DNA from: Candidatus Palauibacter soopunensis
Lineage (GTDB): Bacteria; Gemmatimonadota; Gemmatimonadetes; Palauibacterales; Palauibacteraceae
NCBI RefSeq assembly: GCF_947581735.1
Contig: NZ_CANPVT010000002.1
Span: 315,511 to 379,510, forward strand
DNA: 64,000 nucleotides
Direction of reading: 5' to 3'
Position numbers and translations under genes: made by a program. The notes under the pieces are model-generated. The model saw nothing but the letters and a program-made list of their open reading frames with translations, searched no databases and was not told the origin of the DNA. Shown here one piece after another: positions 27,096 to 34,942 of this stretch (the stretch's first letter is position 1; every line of letters begins with the position of its first letter).

Positions 27096-28169
27096 TCATC
27101 GGTGCGGAACCCGGATCGGGGTGCCTCGCGCGTCAGCGGACTCTCGCGCGAGACACAACTCGGCATTGAGCAAACAGGCGCCGGCGGCGCCCCGGATGCC
27201 GTTGTGCGAGACCACGGTCATCGCGAGGTCGTGTGGCGGCGCGGCACGAATCCTTCCGACGCTCGCCGCCATCCCTCCGGCCGCGCCGATGTCCAGGCGC
27301 GGCTGTGGACGGTCGGGCTCCGACCGCACGATGAGCGGTCGCTCGGGAAGCGAAGGCAGACCCGGCAGGGATGGCGGGCCTCTGAACTCGGCGAGCGCCC
27401 GCGCGGCGTCCCCGGGACTCGCGGGCGATGCGAGCTTCAGAAAGACGTTCGCGGTGTGGCCGTCGAGCACCGGTACGCGGTTGACGCTCGCCGCCACGGG
27501 AATATCGGTCCCCAGGATCTTGTTGAGTTCGGGACCGATCTTCTCCTCTTCGCCCGGGATCCAGGGAATGGCGTTCCCTCCGATCTGAACGGAGCCGATC
27601 CCGTGGAGCCCGGCGCCGGTGACGGCCTGCAGCGTGACGATCGTGGCCGACTCGATGCCGAAAGTCTCCTGGATGGGAGCCAGCGCCAACGCCAGCCCCG
27701 CGACCACGCAGTTCGGGTTGGCGACGAGGCGGCCCCCCCGCTCCGACCACGGCTGGGTCGCCGTGAGAGTCAGGGCCTGCGGGTTCACCTCCGGCACCAA
27801 CAGCGGCACGTCCGCTCGCAGCCGGTGCGCCGAGGCGTTGGTGCATACGGTGTGCCCCGCTTCGGCGAGCGACGGTTCGAGCCGGTGCGCCACGCGCGAA
27901 GGGAGCGCGGAGAGCACGAGCCGGCAGGGCGGCCGCTCGACCGCCATGCGCAGGGGCAGCGGAACAGCCTCCGCGGGAGGATCTCCTCCGAGACTCCACC
28001 GGACCACGTCGCCGTACCTCTCGCCCGCATGCGTCTCGGACGCGGCGACCGCCGCAAGCCGGAGCGTCGGGTGGCCGTCCAGCATCCGAACGAGCCGCTG
28101 CCCGACGATCCCGGTCGCGCCCAGGACGGCCACGGGCACGCGTTCATTCGACGGATGGGTCAGGCGCAT
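27096..28169 (-). CDS. asd: Aspartate-semialdehyde dehydrogenase.
   Basis: VAVLGATGIVGQ NAD(P)-binding N-terminus; active-site Cys region ANPNCVV. Start set at the internal ATG (RBS ggagaggag upstream); the 5' extension in the track overlaps the lysC-like gene. Confidence 0.85.
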   Translation of the reverse strand: MRLTHPSNERVPVAVLGATGIVGQRLVRMLDGHPTLRLAAVAASETHAGERYGDVVRWSLGGDPPAEAVPLPLRMAVERPPCRLVLSALPSRVAHRLEPSLAEAGHTVCTNASAHRLRADVPLLVPEVNPQALTLTATQPWSERGGRLVANPNCVVAGLALALAPIQETFGIESATIVTLQAVTGAGLHGIGSVQIGGNAIPWIPGEEEKIGPELNKILGTDIPVAASVNRVPVLDGHTANVFLKLASPASPGDAARALAEFRGPPSLPGLPSLPERPLIVRSEPDRPQPRLDIGAAGGMAASVGRIRAAPPHDLAMTVVSHNGIRGAAGACLLNAELCLARESADARGTPIRVPHR

Positions 28170-28939
28170 CGGGCACGCTCCTCTCCGCCATGGCCGGTGT
28201 CGGGCGGCGGGTCGTTTCTGCCGACCCAGGTGCCCGTGCCGCCTGGAGCCGCCACCCTGAAGGCGACCCGGTGCCGCTCGGCGAAGCTCAGCGCCCGGTC
28301 CTGAACGACTCCGGCGCCCGTTCGCCGGGCCTCGCTCCACGATGTCCGGCGGATCGGCTTGACGTGCGGGAACCGTTTCGGGTCGGCCGGGAAGATCCCA
28401 TCCACATCCTTCACGAGACGGACTTCCGCCGCGCCGAGCGCGTGTGCGAGGAAAAGCGCCGTAAGGTCCGAGCCTCCCCGCCCGAGCAGCGACGTGATGC
28501 CCGTGGCGTCGACGCCCACGAATCCGGGAAGGACGATCACGTCGTGCGTGGCCAGGGCCGTCTCGATCGCCCGAGCGTCCACGTCCACCGGCTCGGCGGC
28601 CCCGAGCGGCCCCCGGGTGCGGATCGGCAGGCGCGAGAACGACATGCCCACCGCACGCACGCGCCCCGTCACCAGGGCGAGGTGCAGCAGGGCGACGGAC
28701 GCTTCCTCCCCGGGCGCGAGGAGAGATCCGATGAGGTCGTCCGGGAGCGAGGGCGCAACTTCGCGCGCCGCGGAAAGAAGATCGTCGGTGGTGTCCCCCA
28801 TGGCCGACACGACGGCAACGACCTTCGCGCCGGCGGCGACTTCAGCCCGGATCTCCTCGACCGCCAGCCGGTATGCGGCCGGATGCGCCAGCACGGATGA
28901 ACCGAATTTGAGTACGTGAACGCGGCGAACTTCGCGCAA
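28160..28939 (-). CDS. lysC: Aspartokinase-like amino-acid kinase, catalytic domain only (no ACT regulatory domains); probable TTG start.
   Basis: VLKFGSSV N-terminus, VVVSAMGDTTDDLL, LLAPGEEASVALL, SLLGRGGSDLTA, VKDVDGIFPADP. The track's 5' extension (to 29050) reads through the SAM riboswitch and is rejected. Confidence 0.65.
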   Translation of the reverse strand: MREVRRVHVLKFGSSVLAHPAAYRLAVEEIRAEVAAGAKVVAVVSAMGDTTDDLLSAAREVAPSLPDDLIGSLLAPGEEASVALLHLALVTGRVRAVGMSFSRLPIRTRGPLGAAEPVDVDARAIETALATHDVIVLPGFVGVDATGITSLLGRGGSDLTALFLAHALGAAEVRLVKDVDGIFPADPKRFPHVKPIRRTSWSEARRTGAGVVQDRALSFAERHRVAFRVAAPGGTGTWVGRNDPPPDTGHGGEERARCA

Positions 28940-29037
28940 TGAAACGCCTCCCCCCGAGTCTCGATTCACGCTCAGCGGACTCCGGAGAAGCGACGCCCTG
29001 GGAACTGCAGCTGCCGTGCAATGAAGCGCGGCGGGCG

Positions 29038-29153
29038 ACTCATCTACCAACGGATTACATCCGTCGCAGGAGTTGGCACATCAGTGGAAGAGCCACCTTC
29101 CACAGGTTGCCCCGGTGTCTTCGGGCCTGTCCCTCGACCGGTCTCGATGAGCG
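29038..29153 (-). promoter_or_regulatory. SAM-I (S-box) riboswitch in the leader of the lysC-like/asd/metY operon.
   Basis: Minus-strand RNA: GCUCAUCGAGACCGGUCGAGGGACAGGCCCGAAGACACCGGGGCAACC…UGUGCCAACUCCUGCGACGGAUGUAAUCCGUUGGUAGAUGAG. P1 CUCAUC/GAUGAG, GAGGGA, GGCCC, GGCAACC, GUGCCAA-UCCUGC all present. Confidence 0.85.
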
Positions 29154-29273: not shown

Positions 29274-29385
29274 TACTCATCGAGACCGGCTGAGGGACGG
29301 GCCCTTTGAAGCCGGGGCAACCGGGGCGCAACGCCCAGCGGTGCCAACTCCTGCGGACCCCGAACACGGGTCCGAGAGATGAGCG
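29274..29385 (+). promoter_or_regulatory. SAM-I (S-box) riboswitch in the leader of metX.
   Basis: ACUCAUCGAGACCGGCUGAGGGACGGGCCCUUUGAAGCCGGGGCAACCGGGGCGCAACGCCCAGCGGUGCCAACUCCUGCGGACCCCGAACACGGGUCCGAGAGAUGAG matches the P1-P4 consensus almost residue for residue. Confidence 0.9.
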
Positions 29386-29504
29386 TCGGACCCGCACGGT
29401 CGGTCGGCTGCTCCGGAGTTGGCGTCGCGAACCACAGACGCGAGCCGAAACGGAGACACAGCTTGAACGCCGTACTGCCGGAGGGTCGGAGGGGCGCCGT
29501 CGCG

Positions 29505-30479
29505 ATGCCGGCGGCGTGGAGACCGGAACTGGAGGCCGGGATCGACGCCTGCTTCCGGGTGCGCTACGAACTCGCCGGACCCGAGGGCGCCCCGCTGCTC
29601 GTCGCGATGGGGGGGATCTCCGCCGACCGCCACGTCTGCGCCAACGCCCTGGACCCCGCGCCCGGCTGGTGGAGGAAGCTGGCGGGCCCGGGTCTGGCCA
29701 TCGACACGAACCGCTGGCGGCTGCTCGCGATCGACTTCCTCGGATCTCCCGGGACGTTCGAGTCGCCGGATCGGATCCATCTCACGCCCGGAGACCAGGC
29801 GGACGCCGTCGCGGTCGCGCTGCGCCACCTCGGTGTCGAACGGGCCCACCGCATGCTGGGCGCCTCCTACGGCGGCATGGTCGCGCTGGCGATGGGGATC
29901 CGCCATCCCGCCCGCCTCGACGGCGTCGTGCTGATCGGCGCGGCGCACCGCGGCCATCCCCAGGCCATCGGAATCCACGCGGTGCAGCGCTGGATCGTCG
30001 AGTTCGCGCTCCGGCACGGCCGGGGGAGCGAAGGCGTGGCGCTCGCCAGGGCGCTGGCGTTCACGACCTACAAGTCCGCGGAAGGGCTCGACGCCCGCTT
30101 CCCGCACGACTGGGAGTGGGAGGATGGCGCCCCGGTCTACGCCGTCGGCCGCTACCTGGAGAAACAGGGACGGGAGTTCGCGGAACGGTTCGAGGCGGAG
30201 ACCTATCTGACGCTGTCGGCTTCGGTCGACCTGTGCGACCTGCGTCCGGACGAACTCGGCGTCCCCGCCTGGCTCATCGGGTGGGAGGAGGACACGCTGG
30301 TCCCGCCCTGGCTGCTCCTGGAGACCGCAGGCCGGATCGGCGCGCCTTCTCGCCTGCGGATTCTGAACTCCGACGCGGGCCACGACGCCTTCCTGCTCCA
30401 CGCGCCCGACTACGAGGAAGCCCTGAGGGAGAGTCTCTTCGCGACGGAACCGCAGGCCCTCGCGGGCTCAGCCGGATGA
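29505..30479 (+). CDS. metX: Homoserine O-acetyltransferase (alpha/beta hydrolase).
   Basis: GASYGGMVA nucleophile elbow; MetX family. Start set at the ATG at 29505, downstream of the riboswitch; the track's 29379 start lies inside the aptamer. Confidence 0.85.
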   Translation: MPAAWRPELEAGIDACFRVRYELAGPEGAPLLVAMGGISADRHVCANALDPAPGWWRKLAGPGLAIDTNRWRLLAIDFLGSPGTFESPDRIHLTPGDQADAVAVALRHLGVERAHRMLGASYGGMVALAMGIRHPARLDGVVLIGAAHRGHPQAIGIHAVQRWIVEFALRHGRGSEGVALARALAFTTYKSAEGLDARFPHDWEWEDGAPVYAVGRYLEKQGREFAERFEAETYLTLSASVDLCDLRPDELGVPAWLIGWEEDTLVPPWLLLETAGRIGAPSRLRILNSDAGHDAFLLHAPDYEEALRESLFATEPQALAGSAG

Positions 30480-30488
30480 CTCGCGGGT

Positions 30489-32210
30489 TCAGCCGGGCGC
30501 CGCCGCCGCGACGGGAAGCCGCACGCACGAAGGATATGCGGCGGTGTGCAGGACCGTGTTCCGCGCCGTCCGCATGCGCGTGCCCGTCCCCACGTCCTCC
30601 CCCGTGTTGAGGTTGCGGCTGAAGCGGGGGAAGCAACTGCTCGTGATCTGAAGCCTGATCCGGTGGCCGGCCCGGAACACGTGGCTCATCGGATAGAGCC
30701 GGATCCGGAACTCGGTGGCTTCGTTCGGCTCCAGAAGCTCCGTCCGGTCCAACCCCCCTCGATATCGCGCGCGCAGGATCCCCTCTGTGAATACGAATGA
30801 TCCTCCCGCCGGATCGACGTCCGTCACCCGCGCCACGAAGTCCGTGTCGCGCGCCGAAGATTCAGCGTAGAGCACGACCTCGACCGGCCCCGTGACCTCG
30901 AGATCGTCCTCCAGAACCCGCGAGGTGTAGACGAGCACGTCGGGCCGCCGCTCGAGCGGCGCCTGCTCGACGGGGCCGCCCCGCATCGGCGTCTCGGCGT
31001 GGGTCGTGATCAGCCGGGAAGAGAGATTGCCCCCGAGTGAGGGCGCCGGATCGCGCGGATCGTACTCGAAGCGGTCCGGCGGCTCGTCCCCGGGAGGCTC
31101 CGGATCGAGCCGGGCGTCGTCGCCCCGGTTCGCGCGCCCGCGGCTGTGCAGATACCAGGGCACTTCCTCCGTCCCCGGCGGCGGCCACTCCGCGCCCTCC
31201 CGCCACCGGTTGGCGCCCGTCGTGAACCAGCGCAGCGGCGGGTCTTCGCCGATCCCGTCGTCCACGCCGCGAAGCTGCCAGTCGAACCAGCGCCGCTCCT
31301 CCTCCCGCACATCCACCCAGGCGTCCGGGCCGAAGTCGAGGTCCCCGACCGTCCTCGTCTCCGGGACCTCGTGCGACCAGGGCCCGAGCAGGCTCCGGCT
31401 CTGCGTGCGGGCGCGCGGGGTCGCCGCCCCCGACATCCCCTCGTGGATGCGAAGCAGGGACCCCGGATACGCGTCGTACCACCCGCCCTGCTGAAACACC
31501 GGCGCCGTGACGCGGTCGTATTGGTCCGTGACCCTGAGGCGCCGCCAGTACTCGTCCCGCGTCGGGTGTTCCAGCCACTCCCGCCAGTAGGGGATCTTCC
31601 GTCCGATCGCGCGCTCGTCCATCTCGATGAGCGGCAGATGGGCCCAGAACTTCGGGTTCTGAAACAGGCGCGCGGCCTGCGGGCCGGTCACGATGGCGAG
31701 GTTCGTCTCCCAGATCACGGCCGCTGCGAGCGAGAGGAGCAACTGGAAAGCCCCGCCCAGGTAGTGACAGTCGCCGAAGTGGTCGTCGCAGATCACGTGC
31801 GACGCCATGCAGGTGAGGTGCGGGCTGCCGAGCGGCGCGCTGAGCCACTGCGTGAGCCCGCCGTAGCTGCGCCCCCACATCCCGATCTTCCCGTCGCACC
31901 ACGCCTGCCCCGCCACCCACTCCAGCGTGTCGTGCCCGTCCTCGATCTCGGGGAGATACGCGTGGAACACGCCCTCGGACTGGAACCGGCCGCGACAGTC
32001 CTGGACCACGAACGCGTACCCGCGCTCGGCCCACCAGACGCCGTTGTCGATGAACACGTCCCGGCCGCTTTCGTACGGCGTCCGGGTCAGGATGGTGGGG
32101 AAGGGACCTCCGGAAGCGGGCAGATAGACATCCGCCGAAAGCCGCACCCCGTCCCGCATCCGCCCCCGCACCCCATGCAGCAGCCGCACCTCCCGCGGGG
32201 ATTCGGGCAC
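30489..32210 (-). CDS. CocE/NonD family hydrolase (S15 X-Pro dipeptidyl-peptidase-like).
   Basis: GRSYGG nucleophile elbow; CocE/NonD C-terminal beta-sandwich domain; GTG start. Confidence 0.8.
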   Translation of the reverse strand: MPESPREVRLLHGVRGRMRDGVRLSADVYLPASGGPFPTILTRTPYESGRDVFIDNGVWWAERGYAFVVQDCRGRFQSEGVFHAYLPEIEDGHDTLEWVAGQAWCDGKIGMWGRSYGGLTQWLSAPLGSPHLTCMASHVICDDHFGDCHYLGGAFQLLLSLAAAVIWETNLAIVTGPQAARLFQNPKFWAHLPLIEMDERAIGRKIPYWREWLEHPTRDEYWRRLRVTDQYDRVTAPVFQQGGWYDAYPGSLLRIHEGMSGAATPRARTQSRSLLGPWSHEVPETRTVGDLDFGPDAWVDVREEERRWFDWQLRGVDDGIGEDPPLRWFTTGANRWREGAEWPPPGTEEVPWYLHSRGRANRGDDARLDPEPPGDEPPDRFEYDPRDPAPSLGGNLSSRLITTHAETPMRGGPVEQAPLERRPDVLVYTSRVLEDDLEVTGPVEVVLYAESSARDTDFVARVTDVDPAGGSFVFTEGILRARYRGGLDRTELLEPNEATEFRIRLYPMSHVFRAGHRIRLQITSSCFPRFSRNLNTGEDVGTGTRMRTARNTVLHTAAYPSCVRLPVAAAAPG

Positions 32211-32211
32211 G

Positions 32212-32781
32212 CTAGGTCGGGATGGCGGCGAGGACCTCGGACGGTTCGGCGCGCGCCGTGTAGTCGGGGTCGGCGGAGGCGTAGACGATGGTTCCGTCGC
32301 GGTCGATGACGAAGGTGGACGTGAGCGGGAGTTCCCAGGACTCGTCGCCGTTGAAGCGGGCGAGGTCGATGCCGAGCCCGTCGCGGTACAGGGTGCGCAG
32401 CTCTCCGTCGACGGTGAACGTCAGGCCGTAGTCGCGCGCCACGCCGAGCCCGAAGTCGAGGAGGACGTCGAACTCGATGCCGTCTTCCTCGATCCAGCCG
32501 CGGGCGAACTCCGGGAGCTGCGGGGAGAGCGTGACGAGACGGCCCCCCTTCGCCCTGATCTCTGGGAGAACCGATTGAAGAGCAGCCTGCTCCTCGCGGC
32601 AGTACGGTCACCAGCGGCCCCGGAAGAAGCTGAGCACCACGGGCCCCCGCTTGAGGAGCGTCGCGAGCCGGACCGTGGGGCCGGCCACGCTCGGGCGGGC
32701 GAAGAGCGGCGCCCGGTCGCCCACGCCCGGGACTCGGTCGAGGATGCCGGAACTCCGCAGCGCCTCCGTGCCCGCGGCCAT
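32212..32781 (-). CDS. Peroxiredoxin-like (AhpC/TSA / redoxin, thioredoxin fold) putative selenoprotein: in-frame TGA (32608-32610) at the catalytic Cys position, giving W-U-P-Y-C.
   Basis: Single reading frame: …GPVVLSFFRGRW-TGA-PYCREEQAALQSVLPEIRAKGGRLVTLSPQLPEFARGWIEEDGIEFDVLLDFGLGVARDYGLTFTVDGELRTLY…TSTFVIDRDGTIVYASADPDY. The track's two fragments (32608..33237 and 32212..32442) share a frame; the only interruption is the TGA. Confidence 0.6.
32577..32607 (-). promoter_or_regulatory. Candidate bacterial SECIS-like hairpin starting 12 nt downstream of the in-frame UGA.
   Basis: mRNA: UGA CCGUACUGCCGC GAGGAGCA-GGC-UGCUCUUC. An 8-bp stem (one G·U) with a GG-containing apical loop; the loop G sits ~21 nt from the UGA. 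Confidence 0.4.
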
Positions 32782-32902
32782 GACCTCCGTCGCGGCGGCG
32801 GGACGCGCGGCCTCCTTCTCTGCGCGGATCCCGGCGAGTCGCCGGTTGAGCGGCCCGCTCACCGCGGTGCTCCCCTGAGTCCTCCCGTGGCTCGCCGACG
32901 CA

Positions 32903-34501
32903 TCACGGCGTGCCGGCGCGCAGGCGCCGCTCCCAGAAGTCGAGTTGGGCCGTGCGGAGTTCGCTTCCCGCCTCGACCGTCGGCCCCAGCACGAGATGGG
33001 CCTCGGAGTCGCGCGTGTAGGCCGGCCACGGCGGCAGCCCGGGACCGTTCGGATCGCCGTTCGCGGCGAAGTTGACCCAGTAGGAGGACATCGTCTCCGC
33101 CAACCGGCGGTCCACCGCTTCCCGTTCGCCTGGACCGACGTTGCCGAAGGCGTACACGATCTCGGCCGCGTGGTACGACTTGAGATAGTCCTTCGCGGGC
33201 CCCGGCGGCTCGTGCGTGAAGTAGTAGAGCCACGCATCCGCGCCGGCGGCTTCCGACGCCCGCGCCCACGTCCGCATCTGGATGCCGAACAGGGCGTCGC
33301 CCCGGCTTCGCATGAAGGCGTCGAAGATCTCGCCCTCCTCCTTCACGGGGTAGGCGGCGTCGAAGCTCTCCGCATCGTCGCCGACACGGCCCGCGACCCA
33401 CTCGCGCCACGCGTCGAGCGTCTCCGGCACGGATCTCGGGGACGAGAGGGAGGTCATCTCATCGGCGTTGAACCCGACGAGCACCGGGACGTTGTTGTGT
33501 GCGCCCCCGGCGAACGCCGTCGTCACGTCCGTCGGCAGCACCCAGCCGTCCACGTTCTCCGCCGTCCTGAAGCCGCGCCCGGCCGGCGTCTCGAGCCCCG
33601 CCATCACGCTCGCGGCGGAGAGCCGCCGCATGTCCTCCAGCGTCTCCGCCCCGAGCGCCCCGAAGAACGCCGCGCCGATCTCCTCCGCGGAGCGTCCGCC
33701 CTCCGGCGCCTCCGAAAGGCGCATCATGGGCCCGAACCGCCCCCCGCTCTGCCCGATGGCGCGGTGGAAGAGTCCCGCCGCCAGCGGCGTCGCCATCAGC
33801 GTGTTCACGCTCCACGAGCCGGCCGACTCGCCGAAAATCGTCACGCGGTCCGGGTCGCCGCCGAAGCTCGCGATGTTGTCGCGCACCCACTCGAGCGCGG
33901 CGACCTGGTCGAGGACCCCGTAGTTGCCGGACGATCTGTGTTCGGATTCGGCCGTGAGGAGCGGGTGCGAGAGGTAGCCGAACGGTCCGAGCCGGTAGTT
34001 GATCGTGACCACGACCGCGCCCTTCTCCGCCAGTGCCGTCCCGTCGTAGATGCCGGTGGAGCCGGACCCCCGCGTGAGCGCGCCCCCGTGGATCCAGACC
34101 ATGACCGGCCGCCGCTCCGAGGCGTCGGCGGCTCCGGTCCAGACGTTCAAGTACAGGCAATCCTCCGCCGTCGGGGCGGGGGGACCTCCGAAGAACGAGC
34201 CCGCGCCGTAGGGGGTCTGCATGCACTCCGGCCCGAAGCTCTGCGCGCGCAGCGTCCGCCGCCCCCACGCTTCGACCGGCTGGGGCGGCTTCCAGCGCCG
34301 GTCCCCCACGGGCGGCGCCGCGAAGGGAATCCCCTTGTAGGAGCGAATCCCGTCGACGAGGAGGCCGTCGACGTTCCCGCTGGCGGTCTCGACGCGGGTC
34401 TGCTGCGCGAGCAGCGGCGCCCTGAAGCCACCGACGGCCAGGGCGACGAGCAGGACGCGGGCCAAAGTGCGAACCGGATGAGCGCGAGAGTCACGACGCA
34501 T
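32903..34501 (-). CDS. Carboxylesterase type B (para-nitrobenzyl esterase-like), secreted.
   Basis: GESAGS active-site Ser; cholinesterase-family N-terminal Cys region. Start set at the internal ATG at 34501; the track's 872-aa ORF extends spuriously upstream. Confidence 0.85.
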   Translation of the reverse strand: MRRDSRAHPVRTLARVLLVALAVGGFRAPLLAQQTRVETASGNVDGLLVDGIRSYKGIPFAAPPVGDRRWKPPQPVEAWGRRTLRAQSFGPECMQTPYGAGSFFGGPPAPTAEDCLYLNVWTGAADASERRPVMVWIHGGALTRGSGSTGIYDGTALAEKGAVVVTINYRLGPFGYLSHPLLTAESEHRSSGNYGVLDQVAALEWVRDNIASFGGDPDRVTIFGESAGSWSVNTLMATPLAAGLFHRAIGQSGGRFGPMMRLSEAPEGGRSAEEIGAAFFGALGAETLEDMRRLSAASVMAGLETPAGRGFRTAENVDGWVLPTDVTTAFAGGAHNNVPVLVGFNADEMTSLSSPRSVPETLDAWREWVAGRVGDDAESFDAAYPVKEEGEIFDAFMRSRGDALFGIQMRTWARASEAAGADAWLYYFTHEPPGPAKDYLKSYHAAEIVYAFGNVGPGEREAVDRRLAETMSSYWVNFAANGDPNGPGLPPWPAYTRDSEAHLVLGPTVEAGSELRTAQLDFWERRLRAGTP

Positions 34502-34515
34502 GCGAGGCTCCGGAA

Positions 34516-34857
34516 TCAGGAGGGAGGCGAGGGGCTGGCCGGGGGCGGCATCTCCCCGTTCCAGCGGAAACGCTTGAGCGAGATGCGTCCCCACTTGTCG
34601 AATTCCACCCCTTCGTTGGCCAGCAACTGGTACTGGATCATCTCGGAGTACGAGTCGCCGCGGGGGCTGATCTCGCCGCGCGCGTTGATCACCCGGTGCC
34701 AGGGCAGCGGCCGGTCGGAGGCATAGAGCGCGTAACCCACGAGACGGGCCTGTCCGCCGAGTCCGGCGAGCTGCGCGACCTGCCCGTAGGTGGCGACGCG
34801 ACCGGCGGGAATCCGGGCGACGACGTTGCAGATGCGCTCGTGGAGGTCCGAAGCCAT
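34516..34857 (-). CDS. Alkyltransferase-like (ATL) protein: MGMT-family DNA-binding domain with Trp replacing the acceptor Cys.
   Basis: PWHRVIN in place of PCHRV; ~113 aa. Confidence 0.75.
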   Translation of the reverse strand: MASDLHERICNVVARIPAGRVATYGQVAQLAGLGGQARLVGYALYASDRPLPWHRVINARGEISPRGDSYSEMIQYQLLANEGVEFDKWGRISLKRFRWNGEMPPPASPSPPS

Positions 34858-34942
34858 GGTGGTCGTCACTCGCTACGTGGCCGGGGGTCGTGTCATCTTC
34901 GAGAACAGTTTCGAACGCGTGAATCTTGGGGAGTGGGAACCG

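Follow-up and report, generated by a model that had tools for sequence, protein, structure and literature searches.

How is the UGA codon that interrupts a redoxin gene of Candidatus Palauibacter soopunensis decoded? The gene lies on the minus strand of the window (the whole 64,000-nt stretch of DNA analysed here), and its frame is interrupted by a single TGA, in the context ...VVLSFFRGRW-TGA-PYCREEQAALQ..., with 131 codons downstream. Frame translation bears out what a first-pass annotation, made from the DNA letters, had said of this codon, namely its position, its FFRGRW-[TGA]-PYC context and the length of the frame that follows. We consider it highly likely that the gene encodes a true selenoprotein and carries a SECIS within its open reading frame, and we predict that selenium is incorporated at the UGA. 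Direct support comes from the conservation of the UGA, the homology between forms with Cys and forms with selenocysteine (Sec), selection on both halves of the gene, constraint on a hairpin at the RNA level, and the normal use of UGA as a stop codon in neighbouring genes.

Extent of the gene and conservation of its UGA codon

The first-pass annotation had placed the gene at 32212-32781. The stop end of that span stands, and the start moves 81 nt further upstream, to a GTG at 32862. The N-terminal extension upstream of 32781 (VSGPLNRRLAGIRAEKEAARPAAATEV) is conserved in all relatives, whose corresponding first codon is ATG or GTG; it is shared by Cys-containing homologues, and it forms two confident helices in an AF2 model of a Cys homologue. 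Because the extension is conserved, GTG 32862 is most likely the start of the gene, and 32781 an internal conserved Met. The predicted product, from the GTG start to the TAG stop, is 216 aa plus the stop, with Sec as residue 85 (Table 1). The redoxin gene ends in TAG and its neighbours in TGA; among relatives, the choice of stop codon follows no consistent pattern.

Table 1. Features of the redoxin locus, in window coordinates.
Feature	Position	Strand	Remarks
Predicted Prx-like selenoprotein CDS	32212..32862	(-)	Frame translation; Pfam match; conserved N-terminus; dN/dS <1 on both sides of the UGA
Shine-Dalgarno-like AGGGGAG (tentative)	32870..32876	(-)	7 nt upstream of the GTG; suggested by sequence inspection
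Probable start codon GTG	32860..32862	(-)	Orthologues carry ATG or GTG there, e.g. MTGPLCRRLAEIRAEKEAARP
In-frame UGA, predicted Sec85 codon	32608..32610	(-)	TGA in 41/42 genomic relatives
Redox motif U-P-Y-C (Sec85 to Cys88)	32599..32610	(-)	P, Y and C invariant in 38 aligned Sec-type sequences
Candidate bacterial SECIS-type hairpin GAGGAGCA-GGC-UGCUCUUC	32577..32595	(-)	Starts 12 nt after the UGA
Four codons GAG CAG GCT GCT	32581..32592	(-)	Essentially without synonymous variation
Terminator TAG	32212..32214	(-)	Frame translation
Carboxylesterase gene	32903-34510		Upstream of the redoxin gene
MGMT DNA-binding-domain gene	34516-34869		Upstream of the redoxin gene
Peptidase_S15 gene			Downstream; begins 1 nt past the redoxin stop

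A scan of species-representative genomes yielded 43 related loci, 42 of which include the UGA region. Gemmatimonadota MAGs, many of them Candidatus Palauibacter, account for most of the 43, and Rhodopila or Rhodospirillales for six. The window shares ~94% DNA identity over 16-20 kb with contigs of Candidatus Palauibacter irciniicola and a related closed MAG. At this codon, 41 of the 42 loci (47-97% amino acid identity) have TGA, the other one (L036) has TGT, and none has TAA or TAG. The first-pass annotation had named TGC in close relatives, with no hairpin, as a finding that would speak against a selenoprotein; relatives instead carry the TGA, and the hairpin core is conserved. Among 80 family loci from a metagenome scan, this codon specifies Cys (TGC/TGT) in 73, is TGA in six and specifies Gly in one. 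We also found a seventh metagenome TGA form, for which the JGI source record had translated the UGA as Trp. In alignments with the Cys homologues, the UGA falls on the CxxC cysteine of WCPYC, where the first-pass annotation had expected it.

Gene callers mishandle this gene, as had also been anticipated. The closest proteins in public records (66-88% identity) are just 106-134 residues long, cover the C-terminal 60% of the query and bear the name “redoxin domain-containing protein”. Full-length homologues from the protein search are ~50% identical and carry WCPYC. Close relatives that appear only as C-terminal fragments, alongside full-length Cys homologues, are what one expects when gene calls have been cut short at a stop codon that is conserved.

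Amino acid conservation runs across the UGA, and the P-Y-C-R right behind it is invariant. Among Palauibacter species, dN/dS relative to the window gene is ~0.05-0.25 on both sides of the UGA, which indicates that the protein is under purifying selection upstream and downstream of this codon. In a neighbour-joining tree of 125 family members, built without bootstrap support, the TGA forms are scattered and make up at least seven Sec clades. This scatter fits the conversion of Cys to Sec that has been described as a general trend in thiol redox families (PMC1794560).

Fold and active site of the predicted protein

With U changed to C, the protein matches Pfam AhpC-TSA with an E-value of 2.8e-24 (85.8 bits, cut-off 26) and Redoxin with 5.8e-17, in agreement with its first-pass description as an AhpC/TSA-type redoxin. 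Matches to PDB sequences are weak overall, the best being to ResA (4nmu, 6.9e-09). Each residue of the U-P-Y-C motif has its counterpart in the ResA CxxC, Sec85 being aligned with the first Cys. In an alignment with BCP (2cx3), Cys88 corresponds to the peroxidatic Cys, and Sec85 to the Ser of the PxxxS/TxxC motif. Taken together, the ResA and BCP alignments place Sec at the first position of a thioredoxin-type UxxC, where it is neither peroxidatic nor resolving. Hence, the first-pass annotation was right to put the UGA at the CxxC cysteine, but its description of this residue as a resolving cysteine, or as the catalytic Cys of a peroxiredoxin, has to be replaced by the first Cys of a thioredoxin-type CxxC. 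Within a Prx-like scaffold, the predicted Sec85 is the nucleophile that opens a thioredoxin-type UxxC motif, at an exposed site.

A structure model was made for a Cys homologue (P0009) that is 49% identical to the window protein; its pLDDT is 97. The model has a thioredoxin/peroxiredoxin fold after a two-helix N-terminal hairpin, with the CxxC capping the N-terminal end of a long helix (85-103). The closest solved folds found with Foldseek are BCP/PrxQ and AhpE peroxiredoxins (3hjp, 5epf, 2cx3, 4x1u), with E-values of ~1e-13 to 1e-11, TM-scores of ~0.8-0.9 relative to the target and 20-26% identity. The modelled homologue resembles BCP/PrxQ and AhpE in fold, but identity is low, and the window protein has a thioredoxin-type CxxC rather than a Prx active site.

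Several other assignments were considered and rejected. A typical Prx selenoprotein (TxxU), in which Sec is the peroxidatic Cys, is ruled out, since it is Cys88 that aligns with the peroxidatic Cys of BCP. Membership in the SelL-related, ResA or DsbE families is ruled out by NCBIfam scores far below the cut-offs: 34.3 bits against 120 for the SelL-related family (NF040769), 33.3 bits against 170 for ResA, and 25.2 against 359 and 24.7 against 123 for DsbE. The alignment at the CxxC is shared with ResA, CcmG/DsbE and TlpA-type proteins; these proteins are membrane-anchored or periplasmic, unlike the window protein, for which inspection of the sequence revealed no hydrophobic N-terminus.

The product would be a cytoplasmic, 216-residue peroxiredoxin-like thiol:disulfide oxidoreductase with an AhpC/TSA fold and the active site U85-P-Y-C88. 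In the reaction that we infer, a selenolate at the N-terminal end of the active-site helix would attack an oxidised substrate, which would be a disulfide or possibly a peroxide. A selenenylsulfide would then form with Cys88, and a cellular thiol reductant would recycle the protein.

A hairpin in the mRNA downstream of the UGA

Does the mRNA contain a SECIS? The first-pass annotation had proposed a short stem shortly after the UGA, with GG in the apical loop, at a distance used by bacterial SECIS elements, and this description holds. The apical loop, GGC, lies at 32585-32587, 20 nt from the UGA; the stem comprises 8 bp, one of them G-U, and the folding energy is -9.2 kcal/mol. Published constraints for bacterial SECIS elements are a loop of 3-9 nt that has G in its first two positions, an upper stem of 4 bp or more, a spacing of 16-37 nt between UGA and loop, and a minimum free energy of -7.5 kcal/mol or lower (PMC13188914). 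The window hairpin passes a filter that is our own simple coding of these constraints (not bSECISearch), as do 11% of the 1,182 TGA trinucleotides in the window. The folding energy of the 63-nt hairpin region is no better than that of dinucleotide shuffles (z = 0.26). The GC content of the window is 69.6%, and at 70% GC folding energy is uninformative for such a hairpin. A permissive Rfam scan of 32480-32680 returned no SECIS family and chance-level matches only; we do not count the missing match against a SECIS, since Rfam covers few bacterial SECIS types. On its own, the hairpin is not more than chance.

The comparison between species gives a different kind of evidence. We aligned 40 distinct Sec-type sequences, ungapped over 57 nt from the UGA. 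Variation is essentially absent from columns 19-22 (GAGC), 28-30 and 32 (GCU, U). Every sequence has G in column 24, and at least 90% have it in column 25. The core GAGC-N5-GCUC is invariant across the 40 sequences. Furthermore, the codons that overlap this core show almost no synonymous variation. For codons +6 to +9 (GAG CAG GyT GCT), the third-position entropy in 38 sequences is 0, 0, 0.18 and 0 bits, whereas other codons with synonymous alternatives mostly have ~0.4-1.9 bits. The Ala codon in the hairpin is GCT in 38/38 sequences, although T is rare at third positions in the redoxin gene. That synonymous third positions are frozen within the hairpin means that it is the RNA, rather than the protein, that is constrained. 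Taken together, the conserved TGA, the invariant core and the frozen third positions are far beyond chance.

Outside the core the stem is more variable. Base pair 17-33 occurs as A-U, C-G, U-A and U-G, and is the only pair with compensatory changes. In roughly one third of the orthologues the three outer pairs of the stem do not form, and covariation over the whole hairpin is statistically weak; RNAalifold keeps just the invariant 4-bp core, with no covariation term. The Rhodopila orthologues have a related core, GAGC-UGGAU-GCUU, with a bulged U and a 7-bp lower stem. One TGA form from a JGI metagenome (L126) has GCAGAGC-UGGAG-GCUCUGC. Most of the remaining metagenome TGA forms have, at this site, a hairpin with a different stem whose loop has its G at the corresponding position; examples are GAGCUGCAG-GUU-CUGCAGCUU and GAGCUGCA-GUCGU-UGCAGCUC.

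The strict hairpin filter is passed by 26 of 42 genomic and 3 of 6 metagenomic TGA-type loci, as against 4 of 75 Cys-type genes (the 73 metagenomic ones and two Cys-type control loci, L044 and L045). In one of these controls, from Rubrivirga (L045), a comparable hairpin occupies the corresponding site. Remnant SECIS-like hairpins beside Cys codons have been described previously (PMC1794560).

How does the window hairpin compare with a well-characterised bacterial SECIS? The SECIS of E. coli fdhF is a hairpin that starts ~11-12 nt after the UGA, within the open reading frame; it has an essential G in the apical loop, and it constrains the codons it overlaps. The window hairpin resembles it in the spacing from the UGA, the position inside the open reading frame, the loop G and the constraint on the overlapped codons. 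In contrast, its sequence is different and its stem is shorter (8 bp, with an invariant core of just 4-5 bp). The loop also differs from that of fdhF, being GGC/GGU or A-GGY-U in the window type, with a bulged U in the Rhodopila version only.

Decoding of the UGA and relation to known selenoproteins

We propose that the UGA would be recoded during translation and not read as a stop. The hairpin 12 nt past it, with its conserved G-G apical loop, would act as a bacterial SECIS. We infer that SelB, bringing a Sec-tRNA(Sec) charged by way of SelA and SelD, is recruited to it and that Sec is inserted as a result. Are the components of this pathway present in the lineage? The window and the 43 loci contain no tRNA-Sec detectable with ARAGORN, and the window and the fetched loci contain no selA, selB or selD. 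A 91-nt “tRNA-Glu” predicted in one locus (L017) is spurious and lies inside a peptidase gene. Nonetheless, KEGG annotation of 48 Palauibacterales MAGs, which are relatives of the source genome of the window, records at the annotation level selD (K01008) in 43/48, selA (K01042) in 41/48 and selB (K03833) in 38/48 (PMC10469786 Table S3). All three genes are recorded for P. irciniicola GCA_009836005.1, from the named species nearest to the window, which is 95.6% complete and has a GC content of 69.4%. Where a gene is missing, the MAG is in many cases 50-85% complete; this holds for every absence among the Palauibacter sponge MAGs (PMC10469786 Table S3).

The alternative that survives best, although we consider it improbable, is that the UGA is read through, or decoded as Trp, Cys or Arg, or that the genetic code is reassigned, and that the hairpin merely stimulates read-through. 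The public source that translated a homologous TGA as Trp could be taken to agree with this explanation. However, TGA terminates each of the eight Pfam-validated neighbouring genes and interrupts none of them; since TGA is the ordinary stop of these genes, the genetic code is not reassigned. A GC3-based scan of the 64 kb found no other credible in-frame TGA; its only other candidate proved to be an antisense frame of the peptidase gene and was discarded. Moreover, the codon falls exactly on the redox-active Cys of the homologues, the hairpin has the G-G loop and the distance typical of a SECIS, and dedicated Sec genes are recorded across the order (PMC10469786 Table S3). The redox motif is strongly selected, and Trp or Arg in place of the first cysteine of the CxxC would abolish it.

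We give even less credence to the possibility that the UGA is a true stop codon, which would yield an 84-residue N-terminal peptide and a downstream part made from a separate internal start. Some relatives do have a GTG or TTG 10-15 codons past the UGA that gene callers use as a start. In the window, however, translation could restart no earlier than 32442, which leaves just 76 aa; since there is no start codon between the UGA and this position, the downstream part of the window gene is not expressible alone. Furthermore, the invariant PYC and the next helix precede any such start, and a split at the CxxC would halve a single thioredoxin-fold domain. Finally, the C-terminal fragments kept by public gene callers could suggest a pseudogene or a sequencing or assembly error, with the TGA as a recent nonsense mutation or a miscalled TGC, but the chance of this is negligible given that the same TGA recurs in 41 assemblies that are independent and come from different studies, as well as in several further metagenome contigs, that dN/dS is ~0.1-0.2 on either side of it, and that the synonymous sites of the hairpin are frozen.

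A selenoprotein of this kind has precedents. The “Prx-like thiol:disulfide oxidoreductase” (PF00578, UxxC) has been catalogued as a family of selenoproteins, with a high-confidence prediction (PMC13188914). In the Global Ocean Sampling data, “Prx-like 1” (pfam00578, UxxC) comprised 225 Sec sequences and 2,740 Cys homologues, and Prx-like UxxC proteins were among the most abundant known marine selenoprotein classes (PMC2398784). Prx-like selenoproteins are frequent in marine bacteria, and the reference member is WP_010940744.1 (PMC13188914, PMC2398784, PMC1794560). The first-pass annotation had pointed to this class, and the window gene has both of its features; it is by the PF00578 domain and the UxxC motif, rather than by comparison with WP_010940744.1, that we place the gene in the family, to which it would belong. 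The resemblance to the Prx-like 1 class known from Global Ocean Sampling and the Sargasso Sea extends to Sec as the first residue of the motif, to a SECIS hairpin immediately downstream within the coding sequence, and to the many Cys homologues (PMC13188914, PMC2398784, PMC1794560). In contrast to that class, the window clade is from Gemmatimonadota (Palauibacterales and relatives), and is of the ~215-residue “peroxiredoxin-like family protein” type, with an extra N-terminal two-helix hairpin.

These observations can be combined in a tentative reading, which we hold to be possible but would not favour. The Sec forms of the ~215-residue “peroxiredoxin-like family protein” in Gemmatimonadota and Rhodopila might be a distinct clade that shares one minimal, phylum-wide SECIS core (GAGC-N5-GCUC, with a G-G loop), while Cys and Sec forms would have switched at least five to seven times in the wider family. 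Such switches may be eased by codon usage: the helix after the CxxC (L-E-x-x-A-L-Q) has self-complementary codons (CUG/CAG, GAG/CUC), which in some Cys forms would already form a SECIS-like hairpin. If this is true, the family offers a concrete case of pre-adaptation for Cys-to-Sec conversion.

What does the gene add to what is known of selenoproteins? A literature search on Gemmatimonadota and selenocysteine returned incidental mentions only, and no paper discussing the selenoproteins of the phylum. The window gene is very probably an added member of a well-known selenoprotein class, in a lineage for which the literature searched holds no such documentation. General knowledge of selenoproteins is unchanged. 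The result corrects the annotation of a conserved gene that is truncated in public records for Palauibacter and other Gemmatimonadota, and it documents predicted use of selenocysteine in a sponge-associated lineage. Moreover, 40 aligned natural variants of one putative bacterial SECIS will be useful for defining how SelB of this lineage recognises its RNA.

The flanking genes give no functional clue to the redoxin. An operon link with the adjoining Peptidase_S15 gene was considered and dropped, because only two relatives share this placement of the peptidase with the window. In several Gemmatimonadota other than Palauibacter, a gene with an MGMT domain directly precedes the redoxin gene. A scan of the whole window with Rfam at the gathering threshold identified two SAM riboswitches only.

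Sec forms in metagenomes

At position 507–509 of L126, a metagenome locus (JGI 3300086350) encoding protein P0034, the DNA reads TGA but the public collection gives "WWPYC"; hence, UGA was rendered as Trp by the source. A 7 bp hairpin, GCAGAGC-UGGAG-GCUCUGC, lies 12 nt 3ʹ of the TGA. L126 is an additional Sec form, unrecognised so far. Six more family members, all on metagenome contigs (L061, L071, L099, L101, L110 and L120), have TGA at the first position of CxxC. In a neighbour-joining tree of 125 family members, which carries no bootstrap support, these six are interspersed with Cys forms, and there are at least seven Sec clades altogether. The dispersal of TGA forms among Cys forms in this tree suggests that switches between Cys and Sec occurred repeatedly in the family.

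Homologues without Sec

Among 42 close genomic relatives, the sole Cys form (TGT) is that of a Pseudomonadota MAG (L036, 9361–9918), which adjoins the Rhodopila and Gemmatimonadota Sec clades in the same unbootstrapped tree. The hairpin is absent from L036, which may represent a Sec-to-Cys reversion. The Cys-type gene of Rubrivirga sp. (L045, 3001–3657; protein P0020) has CUGGAGC-UGAAGGC-GCUCCAG at the position of the SECIS in Sec forms. The sequence could be the vestige of a SECIS; alternatively, it could have arisen incidentally from the self-complementary codons that encode the L-E...A-L-Q helix. In the family member on metagenome contig Ga0210385_10015195 (L108), the Sec/Cys codon is GGC (Gly), giving WGPYC; the redox motif would have one Cys alone.

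Genes and riboswitches near the selenoprotein gene

The Peptidase_S15/PepX_C gene adjoins the selenoprotein gene only in the window and in relatives L008 and L012. The absence of the gene from this position in most Palauibacter relatives suggests that it arrived here recently, by insertion or rearrangement, and is no operon partner of the selenoprotein gene. A 91-nt "tRNA-Glu(ctc)" called by ARAGORN in L017 (6907–6997) lies within the coding region of a Peptidase_S15 gene and is almost certainly a false positive.

In five non-Palauibacter Gemmatimonadota loci (L025, L026, L028, L029 and L032), an MGMT DNA_binding_1 gene is immediately 5ʹ of the selenoprotein gene; in Palauibacter, a carboxylesterase gene separates the two. 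We know of no functional link between them.

Features of the window around the selenoprotein gene
Feature	Position	Strand	Context
SAM riboswitch (Rfam RF00162)	29037–29153	-	5ʹ of amino-acid-kinase-family ORF 28160–29050 (-)
SAM riboswitch (Rfam RF00162)	29274–29385	+	5ʹ of MetX-like alpha/beta-hydrolase ORF 29379–30479 (+)
Peptidase_S15/PepX_C gene	30489–32210	-	start 1 nt past selenoprotein stop
MGMT DNA_binding_1 (alkyltransferase-like) gene	34516–34869	-	

The two SAM riboswitches, which score 74 and 88 bits in Rfam, are divergently oriented.
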